This document shows positions 31,698 through 41,768 of a stretch of 47,020 nucleotides of DNA, one piece after another. Source of the DNA: Gemmatimonadales bacterium (GTDB lineage: Bacteria; Gemmatimonadota; Gemmatimonadetes; Gemmatimonadales; GWC2-71-9); NCBI GenBank assembly GCA_036270315.1, contig DATBCS010000035.1:1-47020 (forward strand). The letters are read 5' to 3'. The notes beneath the pieces are model-generated. The model was not told the origin of the DNA, ran no database searches, and saw only the letters and a program-made list of their open reading frames with translations. A program made the position numbers and the translations under genes. Each line of letters opens with the position of its first letter. Positions within the stretch are counted from its first letter, which is position 1.

Positions 31698-33497
31698 ATG
31701 CGCCTAGACCACATCCGCAACTTCTGCATCGTGGCCCACATCGACCACGGCAAGTCAACCCTGGCCGATCGGCTGATCGAGCTGACCGGAACGCTCGACA
31801 AGCGGTTGATGCGCGAGCAGGTGCTCGACACCATGGACCTGGAGCGCGAACGCGGGATCACGATCAAGCTCAACGCCGTCCGCATGAACTACCACGCGCG
31901 CAACGGCGGCATCTACGAGCTGAACCTGATCGACACCCCGGGGCATGTGGACTTCACCTACGAGGTGTCGCGGTCGCTCGCGGCGTGCGAGGGGGCGATC
32001 CTGGTGGTGGACGCCTCGCAGGGGATCCAGGCGCAGACGATCTCGAATCTGTTTCTCGCGCTCGACGCCGGGCTCGAGATCATTCCGGTACTCAACAAGA
32101 TCGACCTCCCGGGGGCCGAGCCGGACCGCCGGGCGGCGGAGCTGCACGAGCTGATCGGCGTCAAGCCGGAGGAGATCCTCCGCATCTCGGCGAAGGAAGG
32201 CACGAACGTCCCGGAGCTCTTGGAGGCGGTCGTGGCGCGGGTGCCGCCTCCGCGCGGCGCGGCGGACGCCCCGCTCCGCGCCCTGATCTTCGACTCCTAC
32301 TACGATCGCTACCGCGGCGCGATCCCGAGCATTCGCGTGGTGGACGGCGTGGTCCGTCCCGGCATGAAGATCGCGTTCGGCGCGCACCGCGACGACCTGT
32401 ACCAAGTCGACGAGGTCGGCTACCTGCAACTCGGCCACAAGCCGACCGAGGAGCTCGCGGCAGGCGAAGTCGGGTATGTCGTGGCGAACGTGCGGGGCGT
32501 GCGCGAGACCCGCCCCGGGGACACCGTGTTCGACGCGGAGCACCGCGCCGTCCCGTTGCTACCCGGGTACCGCGACATCAAGTCGATGGTCTTCGCCGGG
32601 CTCTATCCTACGAACGCCGAGCAATTCGAAGAGCTGCGCGACGCGCTCGCGAAACTGCAGTTGAACGACGCGTCGCTGCACTACGAGCCCGAGTCGTCGG
32701 TGGCGCTCGGGTTCGGGTTCCGCTGCGGCTTCCTCGGGCTGCTCCACATGGAGATCGTGCGGGAGCGGCTGGAGCGGGAATTCAACCTCGACCTGATCAG
32801 CACCGTGCCGAACGTGGAATACCACGTCCACAAGACCGACGGCGCGGTGGAGGTGGTGGAGAATCCGAGCCTCATGCCACACGGCTCAACGGTGGACCAC
32901 ATCGAGGAGCCGTACGTCAAAGCGCGGATTGTGGCGCCAGCCGAGTACATCGGCGCGATCATGAAGCTCGGCCAGGAGCGCCGGGGCGTGTATCGGGGGA
33001 TGCATTACGTCGACCCGACCCGGGTCGACTTCGGCTGGGAGTTTCCGCTCGCCGAGATCATCCTCGACTTCTACGACAAGCTGAAGACGATCTCGCGCGG
33101 GTACGCGTCCCTCGACTACGAGTTCCTCGAGTACCGGCCGGCGGACCTCGTAAAGCTGGACATGCTCCTAAATGGCGACGCGGTGGACGCCTTCTCGGTG
33201 ATCATTCACCGCGACAAGGCGTTCGACTGGGGGCGCAAGATCGCGGAAAAGCTGCGGGAGTTGATCCCGCGGCAGCTGTTCGAAGTCGTGATCCAGGCAG
33301 CGATCGGGACCAAGGTGATCGCGCGCGAGACGATCCGCCCGTTGCGCAAGAACGTGACCGCCAAGTGCTACGGCGGCGACGTGACCCGCAAGCGCAAGCT
33401 GCTCGAGAAGCAGAAGGAAGGGAAGAAGCGGATGAAGCAGGTGGGCACGGTGGAGATCCCGCAGGAAGCCTTTCTCGCGGTCCTGCAGGTTGACTAG
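31698..33497 (+). CDS. lepA: elongation factor 4 (LepA)
   Basis: Track ORF 30750..33497 trimmed to ATG 31698. [41 protein letters not shown] and the LepA-specific C-terminal [18 protein letters not shown]. Confidence 0.95.
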
Positions 33498-34488
33498 CCT
33501 CGTTGTCCAGACGGCGTTTCTGGGGGACGTCGTCCTCACGACGCCGCTCCTCGTGGCGCTCGCGCGCCGCCACGGGCCGGTGGACGTCGTCACCACACCG
33601 GCGGCGGCGCCGCTACTCGAGACCCATCCGGCGGTGCGGCGTGTGGTGCCCTACGACAAGCGCGGCCGCGACGGCGGGCCGCGCGGACTGCTGGCGCTCG
33701 CCCGGCGGCTCCGGGCGGAGCACTACGAAGCGGCGTATCTTCCCCATCGGTCGCTGCGGAGCGCGGCGCTGGCGTGGCTCGCCGGCATTCCCCGGCGGGT
33801 CGGGTTCCGCGACGGGTGGCCGCTCCTCTACACCGCCGTCCGGAAGCGGCCGCGGGGGGCCCATGAGATCGATCGCCTGCTGGCGCTTGCCGACGCCGCC
33901 CCAGGCGTCGAGCGGCCGTCGCTCGAGCTGACCGGCGCCGATCGTGCGGCGGCTGAAGGCTTCCTCGGGGAGCACGGCATCCGGGAGCCGTTCATCGCGC
34001 TCGCGCCGGGCGCGATCTGGGGCACGAAACGCTGGCCGTACTATCAGGAATTGGCCGCGCAGCTCAGCACGCGCGTCCCGCTCGTGATCGTCGGGGGCCC
34101 CGAAGACGCCGCGCTCGCCGGCGAGATCACCACGGCGCTCGCGCACCGCGGGCGGGCCACGGCCAACGGCTGTGGCCGCCTGAGCGTGCGCCAGTCGGCC
34201 GAGGTGATCCGACGGGCCGAGGTGCTCGTGACGAACGACAGCGCCCCGCTGCACCTGGCGCAGGCGGTGGCGACGCCGACGGTGGCGATCTTCGGCTCCA
34301 CGGTGCCCGCGTTCGGCTTCGGGCCGCGCGGGGCGGACGACCGGGTCGTCGAGCTCCCCGGGCTTGCCTGTCGGCCGTGCTCCGCGCACGGCCCGCCGCG
34401 CTGCCCGCTGGGGCACCACCGCTGCATGCGGGAGCTCACCGTGCAACAGGTGCTGGCGGCGATCGACCGCGCTTGGAAGGGGGAGTGA
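33490..34488 (+). CDS. glycosyltransferase family 9 (ADP-heptose:LPS heptosyltransferase-like)
   Basis: [28 protein letters not shown] and [23 protein letters not shown] are GT9 signatures. The TTG start overlaps the lepA 3-prime end. Confidence 0.82.
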
Positions 34489-34492
34489 GCCT

Positions 34493-34606
34493 GTGAAGCA
34501 CGTGATGCGCGAGGGCAAGATCGGCTGCCTCCCGGTGATCGATGCCGGCAAGCTCGTCGGGATCGTGTCCGCGCACGATCTCTTGAGCCTCGTCGAGCAA
34601 CTCTAA
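34493..34606 (+). pseudogene. orphan half CBS motif (37 codons), likely relic of a CBS-containing gene
   Basis: VKHVMREGKIGCLPVIDAGKLVGIVSAHDLLSLVEQL is the C-terminal strand-strand-helix of one CBS motif. Sequence in the same frame upstream overlaps the GT9 gene and is not CBS-like. Confidence 0.45.
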
Positions 34607-34614
34607 GGAGACCG

Positions 34615-35580
34615 ATGCGGTACGTCGTGGGGCTGGACATCGGCGGGACGAACCTGGTGGCCGGCGCCGTCGCCGAGGACGGCTCCGAGGTGTTGGGCCT
34701 CGTGTCGGAGCCCACGCGCGCCGAGCAAGGGGCCGAGGGGGTGGTGGGTCGGCTCGTCAAGCTGGCGCGCGCCGCGATCGCCGGAGCCCGCGGCAAGGAG
34801 GTCGTGGGGATCGGCGTCGGTTCGCCGGGGCCGCTCAACACGACGACGGGCGTGGTGCTCCTGACGCCGAATCTCGGCTGGACGAACTTCCCCTTGCGGG
34901 ATCGGTTGGCGGCGGCGTTGGGGCTGCCCGCCACGCTCGACAACGACGCTAACTGCGCCATCTTCGGCGAGTGGTGGCGGGGCGCGGCGCGCGGCGCGGA
35001 CCACGTCGTCGGGCTCACGATCGGCACGGGGATCGGCGGCGGGATCGTGCTCTATGGCAAGATCTACCACGGCGCGTCCGACATCGCCGGCGAGATCGGC
35101 CACATGACCATCGATTTGAACGGCCGGCGCTGCAAGTGCGGCAACTACGGCTGCCTCGAGGCGTACGCCTCGGGGCCGGCCATCGCGGCGCGGGCGACCG
35201 AGGGCATCGAGGCCGGCGCGGACTCGGCCCTCCCGCGCTATGTGAACGGCGACCTGTCGCGGATCACCGCCCAGCTGGTGTACGAAGCGGCCAACGACGG
35301 CGACCCCTACGCCCTCGACATCGTACGCGAGACGGCGAAGTTCCTGGGCGCGGGCGTCGCCAACATCGTCAACATCTTCAACCCCCAAGTCGTGGTGATC
35401 TGCGGCGGGGTGACGCTCGCCGGGGACACGCTGTTCGTGCCGTTGTGGGGCGAGGTGCAACGCCGCGCGTTCAAGCCCGCCGTGGAGGCGTGCCGCGTCG
35501 TCCCTGGCGCGCTCACGGGCACGGCCGGGGTGTACGGCGCCGCGGCGGTGTTCATGCTGCGCACTTGGGGGAACGTGTGA
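34615..35580 (+). CDS. ROK-family sugar kinase (glucokinase-like)
   Basis: GLDIGGTNL (ATP site), GIGGGIVL..GEIGH and the ROK zinc motif CKCGNYGCLEAYASG. Confidence 0.88.
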   Translation: MRYVVGLDIGGTNLVAGAVAEDGSEVLGLVSEPTRAEQGAEGVVGRLVKLARAAIAGARGKEVVGIGVGSPGPLNTTTGVVLLTPNLGWTNFPLRDRLAAALGLPATLDNDANCAIFGEWWRGAARGADHVVGLTIGTGIGGGIVLYGKIYHGASDIAGEIGHMTIDLNGRRCKCGNYGCLEAYASGPAIAARATEGIEAGADSALPRYVNGDLSRITAQLVYEAANDGDPYALDIVRETAKFLGAGVANIVNIFNPQVVVICGGVTLAGDTLFVPLWGEVQRRAFKPAVEACRVVPGALTGTAGVYGAAAVFMLRTWGNV

Positions 35581-36488
35581 AACGGCTGGGGGTCGTCGGC
35601 TCGATGGTGTGGGACACCATCTATGGCCGTGACCCGGCGCAGCCTGCAGTCGAAGAGTGGGGCGGGATCTCGTACTCGCTCGCGGCGCTCGACGCGACGC
35701 TCGCGGCCGACTGGCAGATCGTGCCGCTCGTCAAGGTGGGCCGCGACCTCGCGCCCCGGGCGAACCAGTTCCTCGGGGCGCTCGACCACGTGGCCCCGGG
35801 GGCGCGCTTCCTCGAGGTGGCGACGCCGAACAACCGTGTCACGCTCCGCTACTACCAGCGCGAACGGCGCTGCGAGCAGATGGCGGGCGGCGTGCCCCCG
35901 TGGACCTGGCCGGAGCTCGGGCCCCTCGTGAGAGACTTGGACGCCCTGTACGTGAATTTCATCTCGGGCTACGAATTGGACTTGGCCACCGCCGCGCAGC
36001 TGCGCCGCGGCTTTCCGGGCCTGATCTACGCCGACTTGCACAGCCTGTTTCTCGGCAAGACGGCCGACGGCACCCGTGTGCCGCAGCCACTCGCCGACCC
36101 CCCGGCCTGGTTCGGCTGTTTCGACGTGGTGCAGTTGAACGAGGAGGAGCTGCACCAGTTGGGTGACGACGCGCTGGCCGTGGCCGCCCGGGCGCTCGCG
36201 TGGGGCTGCCGCACCCTGGTCGTCACCCTCGGCTCCCACGGCGCGCAGTCCTTCTCTGGGACGCCGGTGCGTGCGGCGCGCATTCACGCGGAGGGGCCGG
36301 CCGAGCCCGAGGGCGACCCCACCGGGTGCGGCGACGTGTTCGGTGCCACGGTCATAGCGTCGCTCGTCGCCGGGGCGAGTCTCGACGCCGCGCTGCGCCT
36401 CGGCACGCGGATGGGCGCGCGCAACGTGTCGCACCACGGCGCGACCGGGTTGCGCGACCACCTGCTCGGCCGCCTCTCCCCGGCGTGA
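35577..36488 (+). CDS. PfkB-family carbohydrate kinase
   Basis: Track ORF trimmed to GTG 35577, overlapping the ROK stop (GTGTGA). PfkB signature 2 DPTGCGDVFGATVIASLVAG, plus VVTLGSHGA. Confidence 0.8.
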   Translation: MKRLGVVGSMVWDTIYGRDPAQPAVEEWGGISYSLAALDATLAADWQIVPLVKVGRDLAPRANQFLGALDHVAPGARFLEVATPNNRVTLRYYQRERRCEQMAGGVPPWTWPELGPLVRDLDALYVNFISGYELDLATAAQLRRGFPGLIYADLHSLFLGKTADGTRVPQPLADPPAWFGCFDVVQLNEEELHQLGDDALAVAARALAWGCRTLVVTLGSHGAQSFSGTPVRAARIHAEGPAEPEGDPTGCGDVFGATVIASLVAGASLDAALRLGTRMGARNVSHHGATGLRDHLLGRLSPA

Positions 36489-37393
36489 CCCGCCTCGTCG
36501 AGGTCCCGGCGCAGTTCGACGACCGCTCCTTCGATCAATTCGCGGGCGCGTTCGCCGCGGCGGCCACGGACGGCGAGCGGCTGTTGTTCGACGCGCACGC
36601 CGCGGAATGGGCGTCGCCCTACGGTCTGGTGGGGCTCCTCGTGGCGGGCCAGGCGGCCCGCCGCAGCGGGGCCGCGGACAAGCCGCTCCTCACGGCCCCC
36701 ACGCACGGTGACGTGCTGAGCTACTGGGCCCGGGCCGGGTTCTTCCGCGAGGCGGGGGAGTTGTTCGAGATCCATGGCCGCGTGCCGAAAGCGAAGGCCG
36801 ACGACGAGAGCGACGTGCTGGTGCCGGTGACGCCGGTGCGCGCGGCCGAGGACGTCCACGCCGTGGTCAGCAAGTTGCAACAGCGGGCGTCTGCCATCCT
36901 GGCGTCCGAGTTGGGGCTCGACCCGAAGGCGACGATGGGTTTCGCTATGGCGCTTTCGGAGGCGTGTCAGAATATTGTAGAGCACGCGGGCACGGGCGGG
37001 TGGGTGGCGGTGCAAGCCTACCACTGGCGCCGCACGCTCGCGCGGCGGGTCGTGGTGATCGCCGTCGCGGATGCCGGGGTGGGATTCCGGCATTCGCTCG
37101 AGCCGACTCAGGGGAAGCGGTTCGGCGCGCGCTGGGGCGATGCGGCAGCGCTGGAAGCAGCGCTGATCCAGGGCGTGAGTCGATTCCGGGATCCCGGACG
37201 CGGGCAGGGGCTCGCCGGGATCCGGCGCTATCTCGCCCGCTGGGACGGCAAGATCGCCATTCGGAGCGGCACCGCACGGATCGCGATCGTGCCGCCATGG
37301 GATGACGACGTACCCTTGAAAGACGGCCTGCCGCCGTTCCCCGGCGCCCAGGTGCTCATCATCATACCCGAGCAGGGGTCCACGATCCGGTGA
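36485..37393 (+). CDS. GHKL (histidine-kinase-like) ATPase-domain protein with an uncharacterised N-terminal domain
   Basis: Track ORF trimmed to GTG 36485 (GTGA overlap with PfkB). N-box-like SEACQNIVEHAG, G1 VADAGVGF and G2 GRGQGLAGI. No HisKA/DHp or transmembrane segments are visible. Confidence 0.7.
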   Translation: MTRLVEVPAQFDDRSFDQFAGAFAAAATDGERLLFDAHAAEWASPYGLVGLLVAGQAARRSGAADKPLLTAPTHGDVLSYWARAGFFREAGELFEIHGRVPKAKADDESDVLVPVTPVRAAEDVHAVVSKLQQRASAILASELGLDPKATMGFAMALSEACQNIVEHAGTGGWVAVQAYHWRRTLARRVVVIAVADAGVGFRHSLEPTQGKRFGARWGDAAALEAALIQGVSRFRDPGRGQGLAGIRRYLARWDGKIAIRSGTARIAIVPPWDDDVPLKDGLPPFPGAQVLIIIPEQGSTIR

Positions 37394-37839
37394 TACAGCA
37401 TATCGACATGCACGCGGTGCTCCAGGAATCGGTGGCGGGCGTCTACGCCGATCTGGTGACCCGGCCGACCGGTCGGGTGGTGCGCGAGCGGATCGAGCGG
37501 GCGATCGCGCCGGCGGTGCGGGCCGGGGACGTGACGGTCGCGCGCATGGATTTCGCGGGTGTCGGGTGCATCGATTACTCCTGCGCCGACGAGATCGTGG
37601 CGAAGCTGGTGCAGGGCCGGCCCGCCGTGGTCGTCCTCTCGGGCATTTCCGACGGGCACCGCGAGGCGATCGAGCCAGTGCTGGCGCGCGCGGGGCTCGC
37701 CGCCCTGATCGAGGGACCGGGCGGCACGCTTGACACGTTGGGCGCCCCCGCGGCCGCCGCCGTCCTCGTCGAGGAACTGGTGGCGCGCGGGCTTGCGATG
37801 CGCATCCCGGTGGGGACCATCGCGCTGACGCTCGCGTGA
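37390..37839 (+). CDS. STAS-like (DUF4325-like) protein
   Basis: GTGA overlap with the GHKL gene. LVTRPTGRVVRERIERAI...VARMDFAGVGCIDYSCADEIVAKLV resembles my recollection of the DUF4325 pattern (TRxxGxxxR ... DFxGVxxxxxSFADE). Confidence 0.6.
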   Translation: MIQHIDMHAVLQESVAGVYADLVTRPTGRVVRERIERAIAPAVRAGDVTVARMDFAGVGCIDYSCADEIVAKLVQGRPAVVVLSGISDGHREAIEPVLARAGLAALIEGPGGTLDTLGAPAAAAVLVEELVARGLAMRIPVGTIALTLA

Positions 37840-37846
37840 GGGTCGG

Positions 37847-39001
37847 GTGAAGCGTCGCCTCGGCTTCTCGACCCGCGCCGTGCACGGTGATCCGGAGGCC
37901 CGGCCGGACTGGGCGCCCGTCGTGGCGCCGCTGTACCAGAGCGCCACCTTCACCAATCCCATCGGGTCCACCCAAGAAGTCATCTACACCCGCTACGGCA
38001 ACAACCCCAACCATCTGGCGATCGCGCGGCGCCTCGCCCTGCTCGAGGGCGCCGAGGCCGCGCTATTCGTGGCGAGCGGGATGGGGGCCACCGCCCTGGC
38101 GCACCTCGCAGTGCTGCGTCCGGGGGATCACCTCATCTCAAGTGAGTGGATCTACGGAGGGGTGCAGCGGCTGTTCGCCCAGGAGTTCGGCCGCTTCGGC
38201 ATCGACGTGTCGTTCGTGAATCCGCTGCAGGCGCGCGAATGGAAGCGGGCCATGAAGAAGACGACCCGGGCCATCTTCGTCGAGACCCCCACGAACCCAC
38301 TGTTGCGGGTGCTGGACCTCGAGCCCATCGCCGCGCTGTGCAAAACCGAGGGGTTGGCGTTGGTCGTCGACTCCACGTTCGCCACGCCGCTCAACTTCCG
38401 GCCGCTCGAGCATGGCGCGGACGTGGTGATCCACAGCGCCACGAAGTACTTGAACGGGCACAGTGATGTGCTCGCGGGCGCGGTGGCGGGCACCGAATCG
38501 GTGATCGAAGAGGTACGCCGCCTGCTGCAGGTGTGGGGCCAAGCGTTGGATCCGATGGCCGCGTGGTTGATCGATCGCGGCATGAAGACGCTGGCGGTGC
38601 GCGTCGAGCGGCAGAACCGCACGACACTCGCGGTGGCGGAGTGGTGTACCGAACAACCGGCGTTTGCCAAGGTGCACTACCCCGGCCTGCCATCCCACCC
38701 CGACCACGACGTGGCGCGGCGCATCCTGAATGGGTTCGGGGGGATGCTGGGGGTGGAGCTGAAGGGCGGCGCCCCGGCGGCGGAGCGGTTTCTGCGTGCG
38801 CTCACGATCGCGGCGCACGCGCCCAGCCTGGGGGGGGTCGAAACCCTGGTCTCCGAGCCCCGGCTCACGTCGCACGCGATGGTCACGCCGGAGGACCGGG
38901 CGCGGGCTGGCATTCCCGATGGCTTCCTGAGATTTTCCATCGGACTGGAGGACGTCGACGACATCGTTGCGGACTTCGCGCAGGCCCTGGCGCAACTCTG
39001 A
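37847..39001 (+). CDS. Cys/Met-metabolism PLP-dependent enzyme (cystathionine gamma-synthase / beta- or gamma-lyase family)
   Basis: YTRYGNNPN, VASGMGA, VVDSTFATP and SATKYLNGHSDVLAG (PLP lysine). Length is 384 aa. Confidence 0.88.
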   Translation: MKRRLGFSTRAVHGDPEARPDWAPVVAPLYQSATFTNPIGSTQEVIYTRYGNNPNHLAIARRLALLEGAEAALFVASGMGATALAHLAVLRPGDHLISSEWIYGGVQRLFAQEFGRFGIDVSFVNPLQAREWKRAMKKTTRAIFVETPTNPLLRVLDLEPIAALCKTEGLALVVDSTFATPLNFRPLEHGADVVIHSATKYLNGHSDVLAGAVAGTESVIEEVRRLLQVWGQALDPMAAWLIDRGMKTLAVRVERQNRTTLAVAEWCTEQPAFAKVHYPGLPSHPDHDVARRILNGFGGMLGVELKGGAPAAERFLRALTIAAHAPSLGGVETLVSEPRLTSHAMVTPEDRARAGIPDGFLRFSIGLEDVDDIVADFAQALAQL

Positions 39002-39697
39002 GTGATCAAATTCACGAATGTCTTCAAGGCCTTCCCTAAGGGGGGGCTCGCCCTGAAGGACGTGTCGTTCCACATCGCGAAGGGCGAGTTCGTGTTCCTC
39101 ACGGGCCACTCGGGCGCGGGGAAGTCCACCGTCCTCAAGCTGATCTACGCCGATGAGCCGGTGACGAGCGGCGAGGTGCGCGTCTCGGGCTTCAACATGG
39201 CCGAGCTGCGTCCCCGCGACGTCCCGATGCTCCGGCGCCGCCTGGGCATCGTGTTCCAGGACTTCCGACTGCTCGAGGACCGCCCCGCTGAGGAGAACGT
39301 GGCCTTCGCGCTCGAGGTCACGGGCGCGCGGCGCGCGTCGATTCCGGCGCGCGTGATGCGCGTGCTCACGCAGGTGGGGCTCGCCGCGAAGGCGCAAGCC
39401 TACCCGCGCGAGCTGTCCGGGGGCGAGCAACAGCGCGTCGCGATTGCGCGCGCCCTCGTGAACGAGCCCACCGTGCTCCTGGCGGACGAGCCCACCGGGA
39501 ACCTCGACGAGCGAGCCACGCGCGGCGTGTTCCAGCTATTGCGCGACATCAACGCCAGCGGGACCGCTGTGCTGATGGCGACGCACGACCTCGACTTGGT
39601 GCGCCAGGCCCCCTATCGGGTGATCGAGCTGCAGGAGGGGGCGCTGGTGTACGACTCCCAGGTGGACGAACCGCGCGATCAGGCGGCGACGCCGTGA
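39002..39697 (+). CDS. ftsE: cell-division ABC transporter ATP-binding protein FtsE
   Basis: IKFTNVFKAFPKGGLALKDVSF, GHSGAGKST, LSGGEQQRVAIARAL and LLADEPTGNLD, followed directly by ftsX. Confidence 0.92.
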   Translation: MIKFTNVFKAFPKGGLALKDVSFHIAKGEFVFLTGHSGAGKSTVLKLIYADEPVTSGEVRVSGFNMAELRPRDVPMLRRRLGIVFQDFRLLEDRPAEENVAFALEVTGARRASIPARVMRVLTQVGLAAKAQAYPRELSGGEQQRVAIARALVNEPTVLLADEPTGNLDERATRGVFQLLRDINASGTAVLMATHDLDLVRQAPYRVIELQEGALVYDSQVDEPRDQAATP

Positions 39698-40551
39698 ACC
39701 TGGTCATCCGCGAGGCGCTACTGGCGTTCCGCCGCGCGCCCCTGCTCTCGGCGCTGTCCGTGACGACGATTGCGTTCTCCCTGTTCGTGGTCGGCCTGTT
39801 CGGCCTCGTGGCCGTGAACCTGCAGGACGCTCTGCGGGGGGTGGCCGAGCGGGTCGAAATCGTCGCCTATCTGCTCCCCGGCACGCCGATCGAGACGCGC
39901 ACCATCGCCGAGAAGGACATCGAAGCGTTCCCCGAAGTCCAGTCGGCCACGTACGTGAGCGAGGACTCAGCGCTCGCCCGCGCGCATGCCGAGCTGATCG
40001 AGTTCCGCGACGTGTTGCAGGAGCTCGAGCGCAATCCGCTTCCCCCCTCGATCGAGGTGAAGCTCAAGCCCCGGTTCCGTGATGCCGAGCACGTAAACGA
40101 CGTCGCCGACCGGCTGCGCGGGTTCGGGTTCGTGGACGACGTGCGGTTCGGTCGCGACTGGGTGGAAAAGCTCGACCGCCTCCGCCAGATCGCCGCCGCG
40201 GTGGGACTCGTGGTGGGCGCCGCCTTCGCCGTGGTCGCGATCATCATCATCGGGACGACCATCCGGATGGCGGTACTGCAGCGGAGCCGCGAGATCGCGA
40301 TCATGCGGCTCGTCGGCGCCACCGACGGATTCATCCGCCGACCGTTCCTGCTCCAGGGGGCGATCAAAGGGACGCTCGGCGGGCTCGTGGCGATCGCGCT
40401 GTCGTTCGGCGCCTACACCTTGATCAACCGCTGGCTGCTCCAAGCGGCGTTCTTCTCGCGCGAGCAGGCGATCGCGATCGTGGGGTTCGGGGCCTTGATC
40501 GGGCTGTGTGGCAGCGCGGCGTCGGTGGGTCGACACCTGCGACGCGTGTGA
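39694..40551 (+). CDS. ftsX: cell-division permease-like protein FtsX
   Basis: 4-nt overlap with ftsE. One N-terminal TM segment, a periplasmic domain and three C-terminal TM segments (IAIMRLVGATDGFIRRPFLLQG). Confidence 0.9.
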   Translation: MNLVIREALLAFRRAPLLSALSVTTIAFSLFVVGLFGLVAVNLQDALRGVAERVEIVAYLLPGTPIETRTIAEKDIEAFPEVQSATYVSEDSALARAHAELIEFRDVLQELERNPLPPSIEVKLKPRFRDAEHVNDVADRLRGFGFVDDVRFGRDWVEKLDRLRQIAAAVGLVVGAAFAVVAIIIIGTTIRMAVLQRSREIAIMRLVGATDGFIRRPFLLQGAIKGTLGGLVAIALSFGAYTLINRWLLQAAFFSREQAIAIVGFGALIGLCGSAASVGRHLRRV

Positions 40552-41768
40552 GCCGGCGGACCCGGTCGGGGGCGCGCGCCGGGGTGTGGTCCCGCGTGCC
40601 GCTCCCGCTCGTCGTGGCCGCGTGGTGCCACGGCGCGCTGCTCGCCCAACGGCCGCAGCCCTTCGACCAACAGCTGCGCGACAACCAGCAACGGCTTGAG
40701 GGCATCCGGCGCGAGCGCTCGGAGGTGGAACAGGAGCTCGAGCGGCTGCGGACCCAAGCCCACTCCCTGTCCGACGAGCTCTCGAACATCGAGCGGCAGA
40801 AGGAAACGACGAACCGCATCGTCAACGAGCTCGACCGCCAGATCAACAGCCTGTCGGGCCAGATCGACCACACCACAGTGGACCTGCTGCTCGCGCAGGA
40901 CGCCTTGAGCGAGAAGCGCGCCGTGCTCGAGCGGCGGCTCGTGGACATCTACAAGCGCGGGCCGCTGTACGCCTACCAGGTCTTATTCGCCGCCGAGAGT
41001 TTCGGCGATCTCCTGTCGCGCTACAAGTATCTCTACCTCGTGACGCGCCAGGACCGCTTGCTCGCGAACGACATGTCGAAGTTGCAACGGCGCATCGCGC
41101 GTGAGCGCCAGACGCTCGTGGATGGGCGGGACGCGTTGGGACGCCGCAAGAACGAGCGGACCGAGGAGCTGGACCGCTATCAGCAGCTGGAGCACGAGCG
41201 CCAAGCGTCGTTGCGCGCCACGCGCCGCAGCGCGCGCGAGGCTCAGCAGCGTCTGTCCGAGCTCGAGCGGGACGAAAAGAGCCTGAACGACCGGATCGCG
41301 GCCCTGGAGCGGGCGCGCCGGGAGGCCGTGGCGCGGGGCGCCGCGACCGCCGCCGCGATCACGACGGCCGACCTGGGCCAGCTCGACTGGCCCGTGGAGG
41401 GCCGCCTCCTGTATCAGTTCGGGACCGCGGCGGGGCCCAACAACACCCGCATCCCATGGCACGGCATCGGCATCGCGGCCCCGGTGGGCACGCCGGTGCG
41501 CGCGATCGCCGCGGGCACAGTGAGCCTCGCAGGGCCGCTGGGGACCTATCTCACCTCGGTATTGCTGGACCACGGCGGCGGGTACTACTCCTTCTACGGC
41601 TACCTCAACGACGCGACCGTCACGCAGGGGGAGCGCGTGGTGAAGGGGCAGGTCCTCGGCCACGTCGGGGGCCAGTCGAGCGACCAGGGGCCCCACCTGC
41701 ATTTCGAGATCCGCGGGCAGGGGGGTATCGCCCTCGATCCCATCAACTGGTTGCGGAGCCGGCGCTGA
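40548..41768 (+). CDS. M23-family peptidase with N-terminal coiled coil (EnvC-like murein hydrolase activator)
   Basis: Long heptad-like region (LEGIRRERSEVEQELERLRTQ...) followed by an M23 domain (GIGIAAPVGTPVRAIAAG ... GPHLHFEIR). GTG 40548 overlaps the ftsX stop; ATG 40506 is an alternative. Confidence 0.85.
   Translation: MSRRTRSGARAGVWSRVPLPLVVAAWCHGALLAQRPQPFDQQLRDNQQRLEGIRRERSEVEQELERLRTQAHSLSDELSNIERQKETTNRIVNELDRQINSLSGQIDHTTVDLLLAQDALSEKRAVLERRLVDIYKRGPLYAYQVLFAAESFGDLLSRYKYLYLVTRQDRLLANDMSKLQRRIARERQTLVDGRDALGRRKNERTEELDRYQQLEHERQASLRATRRSAREAQQRLSELERDEKSLNDRIAALERARREAVARGAATAAAITTADLGQLDWPVEGRLLYQFGTAAGPNNTRIPWHGIGIAAPVGTPVRAIAAGTVSLAGPLGTYLTSVLLDHGGGYYSFYGYLNDATVTQGERVVKGQVLGHVGGQSSDQGPHLHFEIRGQGGIALDPINWLRSRR

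Follow-up and report, generated by a model that had tools for sequence, protein, structure and literature searches.

What is the function of a soluble GHKL-type ATPase and a small STAS-like protein whose genes overlap each other and directly follow those of two sugar kinases? The question is raised by a Gemmatimonadales genome that was assembled from a metagenome and is 84 % complete, and of which one stretch of 47,020 nucleotides (nt), referred to below as the window, was analysed. The two genes specify a GHKL protein of 302 amino acids (aa), here called K (36485-37393), and a protein of 149 aa, called S (37390-37839). An earlier inspection of the letters alone, the sequence-only reading, had taken them for an RsbW/RsbV-like pair and had put them forward as an undescribed system, possibly a metabolite-linked switch. 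The general resemblance to an RsbW/RsbV-like pair of a kinase and a STAS protein is supported by the analysis described here. The system itself is not undescribed: K and S are distant homologues of CapK and CapS, which were characterized in 2026 (PMC13373217). The pair is probably a kinase-substrate phospho-switch of the CapK/CapS family that is inherited vertically as a core pair and takes part in what is likely to be a housekeeping stress or growth response. From the sequences we infer that K belongs to the soluble Ser/Thr kinases of the RsbW/SpoIIAB type and has S as its STAS substrate.

The putative kinase K and its putative substrate S

The features of the two genes and their products are as follows.
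36485..37393, + strand: K, CapK-like soluble kinase of 302 aa with a STAS and a GHKL domain (hhalign versus CapK; AlphaFold2)
36485..36775, + strand: STAS domain of K, residues 1 to about 97, with the loop W42-x-S44-P45-Y-G (profile and Foldseek)
36854..37384, + strand: GHKL ATP-binding domain of K, residues about 124-300 (Pfam HATPase_c_2 and HATPase_c; Foldseek)
36971-36973, + strand: Asn163 codon of K (aligned with CapK Asn218)
37390..37839, + strand: S, CapS-like short form of 149 aa, STAS/DUF4325-like with a winged-helix remnant (AlphaFold2, Foldseek, profile versus CapS)
37579..37581, + strand: Ser64 codon of S, predicted phospho-acceptor in the motif D62-x-S64-C-A-D-E (aligned with CapS Ser54)
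37726..37836, + strand: winged helix-turn-helix remnant of S, one helix and a beta hairpin (alignments and lengths)

The identification of K as a soluble GHKL protein was borne out by matches to Pfam HATPase_c_2 (E 5e-8) and HATPase_c (E 5e-7). The N-box, G1 and G2 motifs that had been recognized by eye are present, and their residues (E159, N163, H167, D196, G198, G200 and G238-G242) are invariant across the relatives of K. In the AlphaFold2 model of K, which has a predicted local distance difference test score (pLDDT) of 84.8, two domains are seen. Foldseek matched the C-terminal domain to GyrB24, CheA P4 and SiaB kinase. Residues 1-95 form a STAS domain, with Foldseek matches to RsbV (6m36, probability 0.96-0.97) and TM1442 (1vc1, probability 0.99), and the family profile of K matches the SpoIIAA-like PDB entry 4hyl with an E value of 0.005. 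K, previously described as a GHKL protein without a DHp domain, thus has a STAS domain of its own, which had been overlooked. In the loop of this domain P45 and G47 are invariant, and residue 44 is S, T or D. The idea that residue 44 is a phosphosite with naturally occurring phosphomimetic variants was considered; the residue could equally well be the helix N-cap preceding the invariant Pro45, and the alignments with 4hyl and with CapK are inconsistent in placing it on the SpoIIAA phosphoserine.

S on its own has no family match in Pfam, NCBIfam or PADLOC, and no match of S to Pfam DUF4325 (PF14213) was obtained even at E 10. Its AlphaFold2 model, made with 45 homologues, has a pLDDT of 91.9 and contains a helix at residues 63-75. 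The top PDB folds in Foldseek were those of RsbS, stressosome proteins, SLC26 STAS domains, SpoIIAA and RsbV, with modest E values (best 1.5e-3) and probabilities of 0.99-1.0, in keeping with the STAS-like fold that had been proposed for the 149-aa protein. The label DUF4325-like, also given to S before, holds by transitivity: S homologues from other phyla, with 25.7 and 28.0 bits, exceed the gathering cut-off of this family (23 bits), a homologue from Brocadia is named DUF4325 protein in UniRef, and a match at E values up to 9e-4 was found for the S of 3 of 26 members of the class Gemmatimonadetes. PF14213 itself defines a STAS-like domain without a function, which is reached by the relatives of S but not by the S of the window.

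Ser64, D62, D67 and E68 of S do not vary among 28 sequences, which come from Gemmatimonadetes and other phyla. Most relatives of S are 175-200 aa long, and their C-terminal part matches the winged-helix families TrmB, MarR, IclR, HTH_24 and ArsR. The 149-aa form is common to a clade of several genera. Compared to the longer form it misses approximately 30-36 residues, which make up H1, H2 and the first half of H3, the recognition helix.

Comparison with CapK/CapS and other known systems

CapK is a kinase with a helix-turn-helix (HTH), a STAS and a GHKL domain whose activity is triggered by single-stranded DNA (Chambers, Rani, Min, Villa, Corbett; EMBO J 2026, PMC13373217). CapS is a repressor consisting of a STAS domain and a winged helix-turn-helix (PMC13373217; bioRxiv Feb 2026). 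Phosphorylation by CapK of Ser54 on STAS helix alpha2 of CapS breaks the CapS dimer, upon which the adjacent immune operon is de-repressed; this serine is absolutely conserved and has polar or acidic surroundings (PMC13373217). The operators to which CapS binds are palindromes that lie in the capK-capS region and at the promoter of the downstream operon, and mutation of its Asn145 weakens DNA binding (PMC13373217). Deletion of the HTH of CapK had no effect, and Trp68, which together with K237 and K239 contacts single-stranded DNA, is needed for activation by the latter; the corresponding contact residue in VapK is F54 (PMC13373217). VapK belongs to the VapK/VapS/VapC system, which has a kinase without HTH and a STAS protein whose tail is short (PMC13373217). 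The CapK/CapS pair was described as a DNA-damage switch that controls phage-defence operons in mostly proteobacterial accessory loci, with restriction-modification systems located upstream of the adjacent capK and capS genes, not between the two (PMC13373217). No Gemmatimonadetes are present in the datasets of that study.

The sequences of CapK, CapS, VapK and VapS were taken from the source data of PMC13373217 and compared with the family alignments of K and S. Using hhalign, the K family matched CapK with a probability of 96.4 % and an E value of 1.1e-9 in 236 columns that cover both the STAS and the GHKL domain. N163 of K is aligned with the catalytic Asn218 of CapK, and the conserved R182 with Lys239. 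The two other residues of CapK that contact single-stranded DNA, W68 and K237, correspond to the variable residues Q10 and H180 of K. The S family, including its members from outside the class, matched CapS with a probability of 90.7 % and an E value of 1.2e-6 in 141 columns that span the STAS domain and the winged helix-turn-helix, with Ser64 of S aligned to Ser54 of CapS. When the S profile was compared with the whole PDB, the CapS crystal structures 9Z71 and 9Z72 were ranked first and third. The pairs are also alike in organization: in both, the gene for a STAS-GHKL kinase adjoins and precedes that for a STAS protein with a winged helix-turn-helix, as found in the S family although truncated in the S of the window, and K and S have kept the catalytic Asn and the alpha2 Ser in an acidic motif. 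From this homology we infer phosphotransfer from K to S, as well as the existence of a cue and a target of the pair.

Several observations weigh against a close equivalence with CapK/CapS. The similarity is remote, as a profile made of S sequences from within the class matched CapS with an E value of just 0.002 and a probability of 13 %. K does not have the N-terminal HTH of CapK; it starts at strand 1 of the STAS domain, and all of its homologues align from residue 1. At the position of CapK Trp68, K has the variable and non-aromatic Q10. As Trp68 is not conserved, the sequence of K gives no clear support for sensing of single-stranded DNA. There is no intergenic room for operators of the CapS type, since K and S overlap and CGS, a gene for a cystathionine gamma-synthase-like protein, follows S at a distance of 13 nt or less. 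In a crude search of the region upstream of ROK, which is mostly coding DNA, no palindrome was found in more than 3 of 41 loci with a full-length S. No immune operon lies beside K and S, as the downstream genes are CGS, ftsE, ftsX and that of an M23 peptidase across the class. Lastly, the S of the window has lost most of its winged helix, including the stretch that covers the position of CapS Asn145, and the published output mechanism of CapS can therefore not apply to it unchanged. A further difference is that K and S are core genes of the class and not accessory ones, and that a PfkB-like gene overlaps that of K by 4 nt.

In some respects the pair of the window is closer to VapK/VapS. Like VapK, K consists of just STAS and GHKL domains, lacks an HTH and has a length of around 300 aa, and the short C-terminal region of VapS is reminiscent of that of the 149-aa S. 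W42 of K, which is W or F among its relatives, is a conserved aromatic residue in a motif (E-W42-A-S-P) that resembles the one around Phe54 of VapK (R-F-L-R-P), a likeness that was read by eye and carries no alignment score; the STAS domain of VapK was left unaligned by hhalign. The match of the K family with VapK is limited to the GHKL domain (E 6.6e-5), and the profile comparison of the S family with VapS was not significant. The systems also differ in that no VapC/PIN gene is present next to K and S in Gemmatimonadetes, and in that VapS has no winged helix, while the S of most of the class has a full one.

With the RsbW/RsbV and SpoIIAB/SpoIIAA pairs, K and S share a GHKL Ser kinase with an E-x3-N-x3-H N-box and a STAS substrate, the phosphorylation of which is predicted in the case of K and S. 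They deviate from these pairs because K has its own STAS domain and the S family a DNA-binding domain, and because a sigma factor target is not evident and the K/S locus has no cognate PP2C gene.

Gene order in Gemmatimonadetes and relatives in other phyla

In the window, K and S are part of an array of ten co-directional genes (31755-41768) in the order lepA, heptosyltransferase, ROK, PfkB-like, K, S, CGS, ftsE, ftsX and M23 peptidase. Overlaps or gaps of at most 7 nt separate these genes throughout, except for 126 nt ahead of ROK. The genes that flank K and S are listed here.
34615..35580, + strand: ROK-family glucokinase-like gene, first in the tight chain (Pfam ROK, E 3.8e-68)
35577..36488, + strand: PfkB-like kinase gene, the stop of which overlaps the K start in GTGA (Pfam PfkB, E 8.8e-15)
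37847..39001, + strand: CGS gene, for a pyridoxal phosphate (PLP) enzyme of Cys/Met metabolism, 7 nt past S (Pfam Cys_Met_Meta_PP, E 1.5e-123)
39002..41768, + strand: ftsE, ftsX and M23 (EnvC-like) peptidase genes (open reading frame coordinates; class-wide synteny)

The four open reading frames from ROK to S are indeed chained, as had been proposed, by GTGA start/stop overlaps, which are located at 35577-35580 (ROK/PfkB-like), 36485-36488 (PfkB-like/K) and 37390-37393 (K/S). The first of these had been labelled GTGTGA; the overlap is correct, but those six letters span 35575-35580. The overlaps are beyond chance, because they recur: a 4-nt overlap is present at the PfkB/K junction in 84 of 93 related loci and, between K and S, in 63 of 96 loci of Gemmatimonadetes; in most of the other loci K and S are no more than 10 nt apart. 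The S/CGS junction measures 13 nt or less in 76 of 87 loci, and in the window CGS, ftsE, ftsX and the M23 gene continue gap-free after S. As the tight junctions run on into CGS and ftsEX, the chain is a long compact array and not a unit of four genes. No terminator-like site was found within 34.6-39 kb of the window. The conserved ten-gene block, in the window and in the class loci, contains no sigma factor gene, in agreement with the sequence-only reading, which had noted that none was nearby. PADLOC found no defence proteins in the window locus; a match between K and DrmA (E 4e-8) was rejected as evidence for DISARM, as it is confined to the GHKL domain in a model of 1750 positions.

The identities proposed for the two sugar kinases were confirmed by the Pfam matches given above. 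The ROK protein scores 228 bits with the NCBIfam ROK glucokinase subfamily, which is under the 260-bit cut-off of that model, and its top sequence matches in the PDB are the glucokinases 2qm1 and 3vgk. In the PfkB-like protein the Pfam match is confined to residues 176-290, in the C-terminal half. Its EWGG, NE.E and DPTGCGD motifs recur in 95 % or more of 93 orthologues, and its best relative in the PDB is 3kd6, an uncharacterised PfkB-family kinase of Chlorobium.

The distribution of the pair was established in a sample of 201 genomes of the phylum, of which 180 belong to eight Gemmatimonadetes families (f1-f8) and 21 to four others (f9-f12). Both K and S were found in each of the 180 genomes of f1-f8, while neither was found in any of the 21 of f9-f12; the occurrence of the two genes thus coincides exactly. 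In the genome of the window K is present in a single copy. The gene order lepA-(heptosyltransferase)-ROK-PfkB-K-S-CGS-ftsE-ftsX-M23 has been kept across the class Gemmatimonadetes, and ROK-PfkB-K-S is intact in 18 of 20 diverse class loci and in nearly all of 80 further ones. There are two exceptions: in locus L043 (G097:C2) ROK is followed directly by K and the PfkB-like gene is missing, and in L040 (G106:C20) K lies away from ROK and PfkB, and a gene for a cyclophilin-type isomerase is located between K and S. At the family level the median identity of K is 81 %, which makes it about as conserved as FtsX; S, with 60 %, is the least conserved protein of the block.

Two further possibilities were discarded in the course of this survey. 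One genome bin, G078, contains the whole lepA-to-M23 block twice, on separate contigs (L220, G078:C4:3072-11070), with kinases that are around 52 % and 61 % identical to K of the window. As the entire block is duplicated, the second copy was taken to reflect two populations in one bin and not a paralogue of K and S in a new context. The notion that K and S stand in for a missing LexA was ruled out by the presence of lexA in five complete relatives.

A scan of 1.84 billion representative proteins with K yielded 98 matches at E values of 1e-30 or lower and 446 at 1e-10 or lower. Full-length proteins with 30-43 % identity are among them, and the source labels of the relatives outside the class are Nitrospirota/Thermodesulfovibrionales, Nitrospinae, Nitrospira, Candidatus Brocadia and one metagenome-assembled genome of a Bacillota member. 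In these relatives a homologue of S, with E values of 1e-40 to 1e-46 versus the class profile, is encoded downstream of K on the same strand. The two genes are often 0.7-5.5 kb or more apart (L211, L214, L216, L217, L218 and L219), and the genes between them mostly form type II or IIG restriction-modification cassettes of various kinds: MmeI-like; a methyltransferase with Bpu10I, with EcoO109I or with a GIY-YIG protein; HinfI; and BsobI. DUF3368/PIN and SLFN_AlbA_2 genes also occur in this position. Downstream flanks of 1 kb or more were available for 52 loci, which are interrelated and do not give independent counts; a DNA methyltransferase homologue is present downstream of K on the same strand in 27 of them, and upstream of K in none. 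No ROK or PfkB neighbour was found in 80 metagenome loci from outside the class. Possibly, the pair of Nitrospirota and Nitrospinota forms a "K-cargo-S" frame into which restriction-modification cassettes are repeatedly inserted and which may regulate them. The census of the gene pair that had been suggested earlier has, in short, a twofold outcome: linkage to sugar kinases in Gemmatimonadetes, and loci without sugar kinases, often with restriction-modification genes, in the other phyla.

Some of the loci from other phyla have additional genes near the pair. S is followed on the same strand by MutS in L211 (12919-16146) and by RmuC in L217 (10297-12291). In L221/L222 (9001-13915) it is followed by genes for an MJ0043_C protein and a UvrD/PD-(D/E)XK helicase-nuclease, with a 4-nt overlap; the latter gene is found after S in loci where K adjoins S. 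In the Nitrospinae-labelled locus L214 (9337-10843), genes for a MazE-like antitoxin and a PIN toxin are located directly upstream of K, 7 nt before its start. This arrangement recalls the PIN link of vapKSC, from which it differs in gene order.

Proposed mechanism, alternatives and significance

In the mechanism that we propose, K would, on receiving its cue, bind monomeric S and phosphorylate the invariant Ser64, which is located where STAS helix alpha2 starts. S would thereby change its oligomeric state or the way in which it binds a partner. In most Gemmatimonadetes, where S has a complete winged helix, S would most likely be a DNA-binding regulator that is released by phosphorylation. In the clade of the window S has lost its DNA-reading helices, and its output more probably consists of a protein-protein interaction of the VapS type, or is reduced. 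Since the S of the window does not have these helices, its output should be something other than DNA reading, most simply the binding of a protein partner as for VapS. If CapK and VapK are a guide, the cue may be single-stranded DNA or damage to DNA, which is the least secure part of the scheme. A more specific variant, possible although on the unlikely side, is that a switch of the CapK/CapS type, known until now solely from the control of phage-defence operons, has been domesticated in the class Gemmatimonadetes as a core housekeeping regulator, translated together with the PfkB-like kinase and encoded immediately ahead of CGS and the ftsEX-envC-like division genes. A VapS-like S, as in the window, would then act on a protein partner, for which the PfkB-like kinase and the PLP enzyme are candidates, and DNA damage or another stress would be coupled to carbon entry or to division of the cell.

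The metabolite-linked switch of the sequence-only reading, in which K and S would sense or control the ROK and PfkB-like kinases, is compatible with an ancestry shared with CapK/CapS. S or K may, for example, bind the PfkB-like enzyme or its sugar-phosphate product. The PfkB/K overlap (84 of 93 loci) is the most constant junction of the block, 18 of 20 diverse class members and nearly all of 80 more loci have retained the order ROK-PfkB-K-S, the PfkB-like protein has conserved catalytic motifs, and a protein partner is plausible for an S that lacks the DNA-reading helices. Yet the link to sugar kinases, class-wide in Gemmatimonadetes, is absent from the relatives that belong to Nitrospirota, Nitrospinota and Brocadia; in L043 K and S occur without PfkB, and in L040 K is away from both sugar kinases. 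The tight packing, moreover, does not single out the sugar kinases, as it continues downstream into CGS and ftsEX, and no ligand site was identified. The idea has thus been weakened, not refuted, and we regard it as doubtful. Still less probable is a classical RsbW/RsbV partner switch with its sigma factor target encoded elsewhere in the genome. An N-box that reads like those of RsbW and SpoIIAB, the HATPase_c_2 match, weak NCBIfam matches of K to RsbA and RsbW, the STAS folds of both K and S and a SpoIIE-type PP2C phosphatase gene in complete relatives would fit such a switch. The fusion of a STAS domain to K and the winged helix of S are, on the other hand, the architecture of CapK/CapS and not that of RsbW/RsbV, the PP2C gene is found at a distance of hundreds of kb, next to another, canonical STAS gene, and the conserved block is devoid of a sigma factor gene.

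That K would not be a protein kinase at all, but a GHKL ATPase that works like MORC, GyrB or Hsp90, as a clamp or chaperone, with S as a mere binding partner, is suggested by the 24-kDa ATPase domains of GyrB, which top the Foldseek list for the C-terminal domain. The TM-scores of these matches are low, and what they reflect is the Bergerat fold common to such domains, with SiaB kinase and CheA P4 scoring similarly; K has no transducer (S5-fold) domain, its N-box (E-x3-N-x3-H) is of the same type as in RsbW and CapK, and the invariant serine of S is at the position that is phosphorylated in CapS, all of which makes this proposal highly improbable. The role published for CapK/CapS, control of a defence operon, here of an adjacent anti-phage system in the genome of the window, would follow from homology, and the relatives in other phyla do bracket restriction-modification cassettes. 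It can hardly be upheld for a single-copy, vertically inherited pair that has the constant neighbours lepA, heptosyltransferase, the sugar kinases, CGS, ftsEX and M23 throughout the class, and for which PADLOC gives just the match of the GHKL domain of K to DrmA and nothing for S.

The CapK/CapS-like phospho-switch thus being the preferred explanation, the pairing of a kinase with a STAS protein is in itself already known from CapK/CapS, as described in 2026. New are the presence of a core, class-wide CapK/CapS-like pair without HTH in a housekeeping operon with sugar kinases and cell-division genes, the naturally truncated substrate in the lineage of the window, and the split arrangement in other phyla with restriction-modification genes between K and S. 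If a whole class indeed keeps a single-copy relative in a housekeeping operon, the kinase-STAS module would, as a stress switch, be older and more widely used than one would gather from the literature on defence. Gemmatimonas aurantiaca, which has been cultured, would be a host in which to ask what the module controls when no immune operon is attached to it. The truncated S is a natural experiment on the way in which a DNA-binding output can disappear with retention of the phospho-acceptor face. The loci of Nitrospirota and Nitrospinota, with their K-[restriction-modification]-S arrangement, point to a second mode of coupling the module to defence genes.

Complete Gemmatimonadetes genomes also have, far from K and S, a canonical STAS gene at a distance of approximately 2 kb or less from a SpoIIE-type PP2C gene. 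For PP2C, the window's own 84 %-complete genome gave a sub-threshold match only. The STAS and PP2C locus of the complete relatives looks like a separate, conventional partner-switching module, and it was found at the following positions.
G142:C1:2756809-2759139: canonical STAS and PP2C genes
G136:C1:2332710-2335187: canonical STAS and PP2C genes
G127:C1:3420935-3423279: canonical STAS and PP2C genes
G061:C1:2785104-2787338: canonical STAS and PP2C genes

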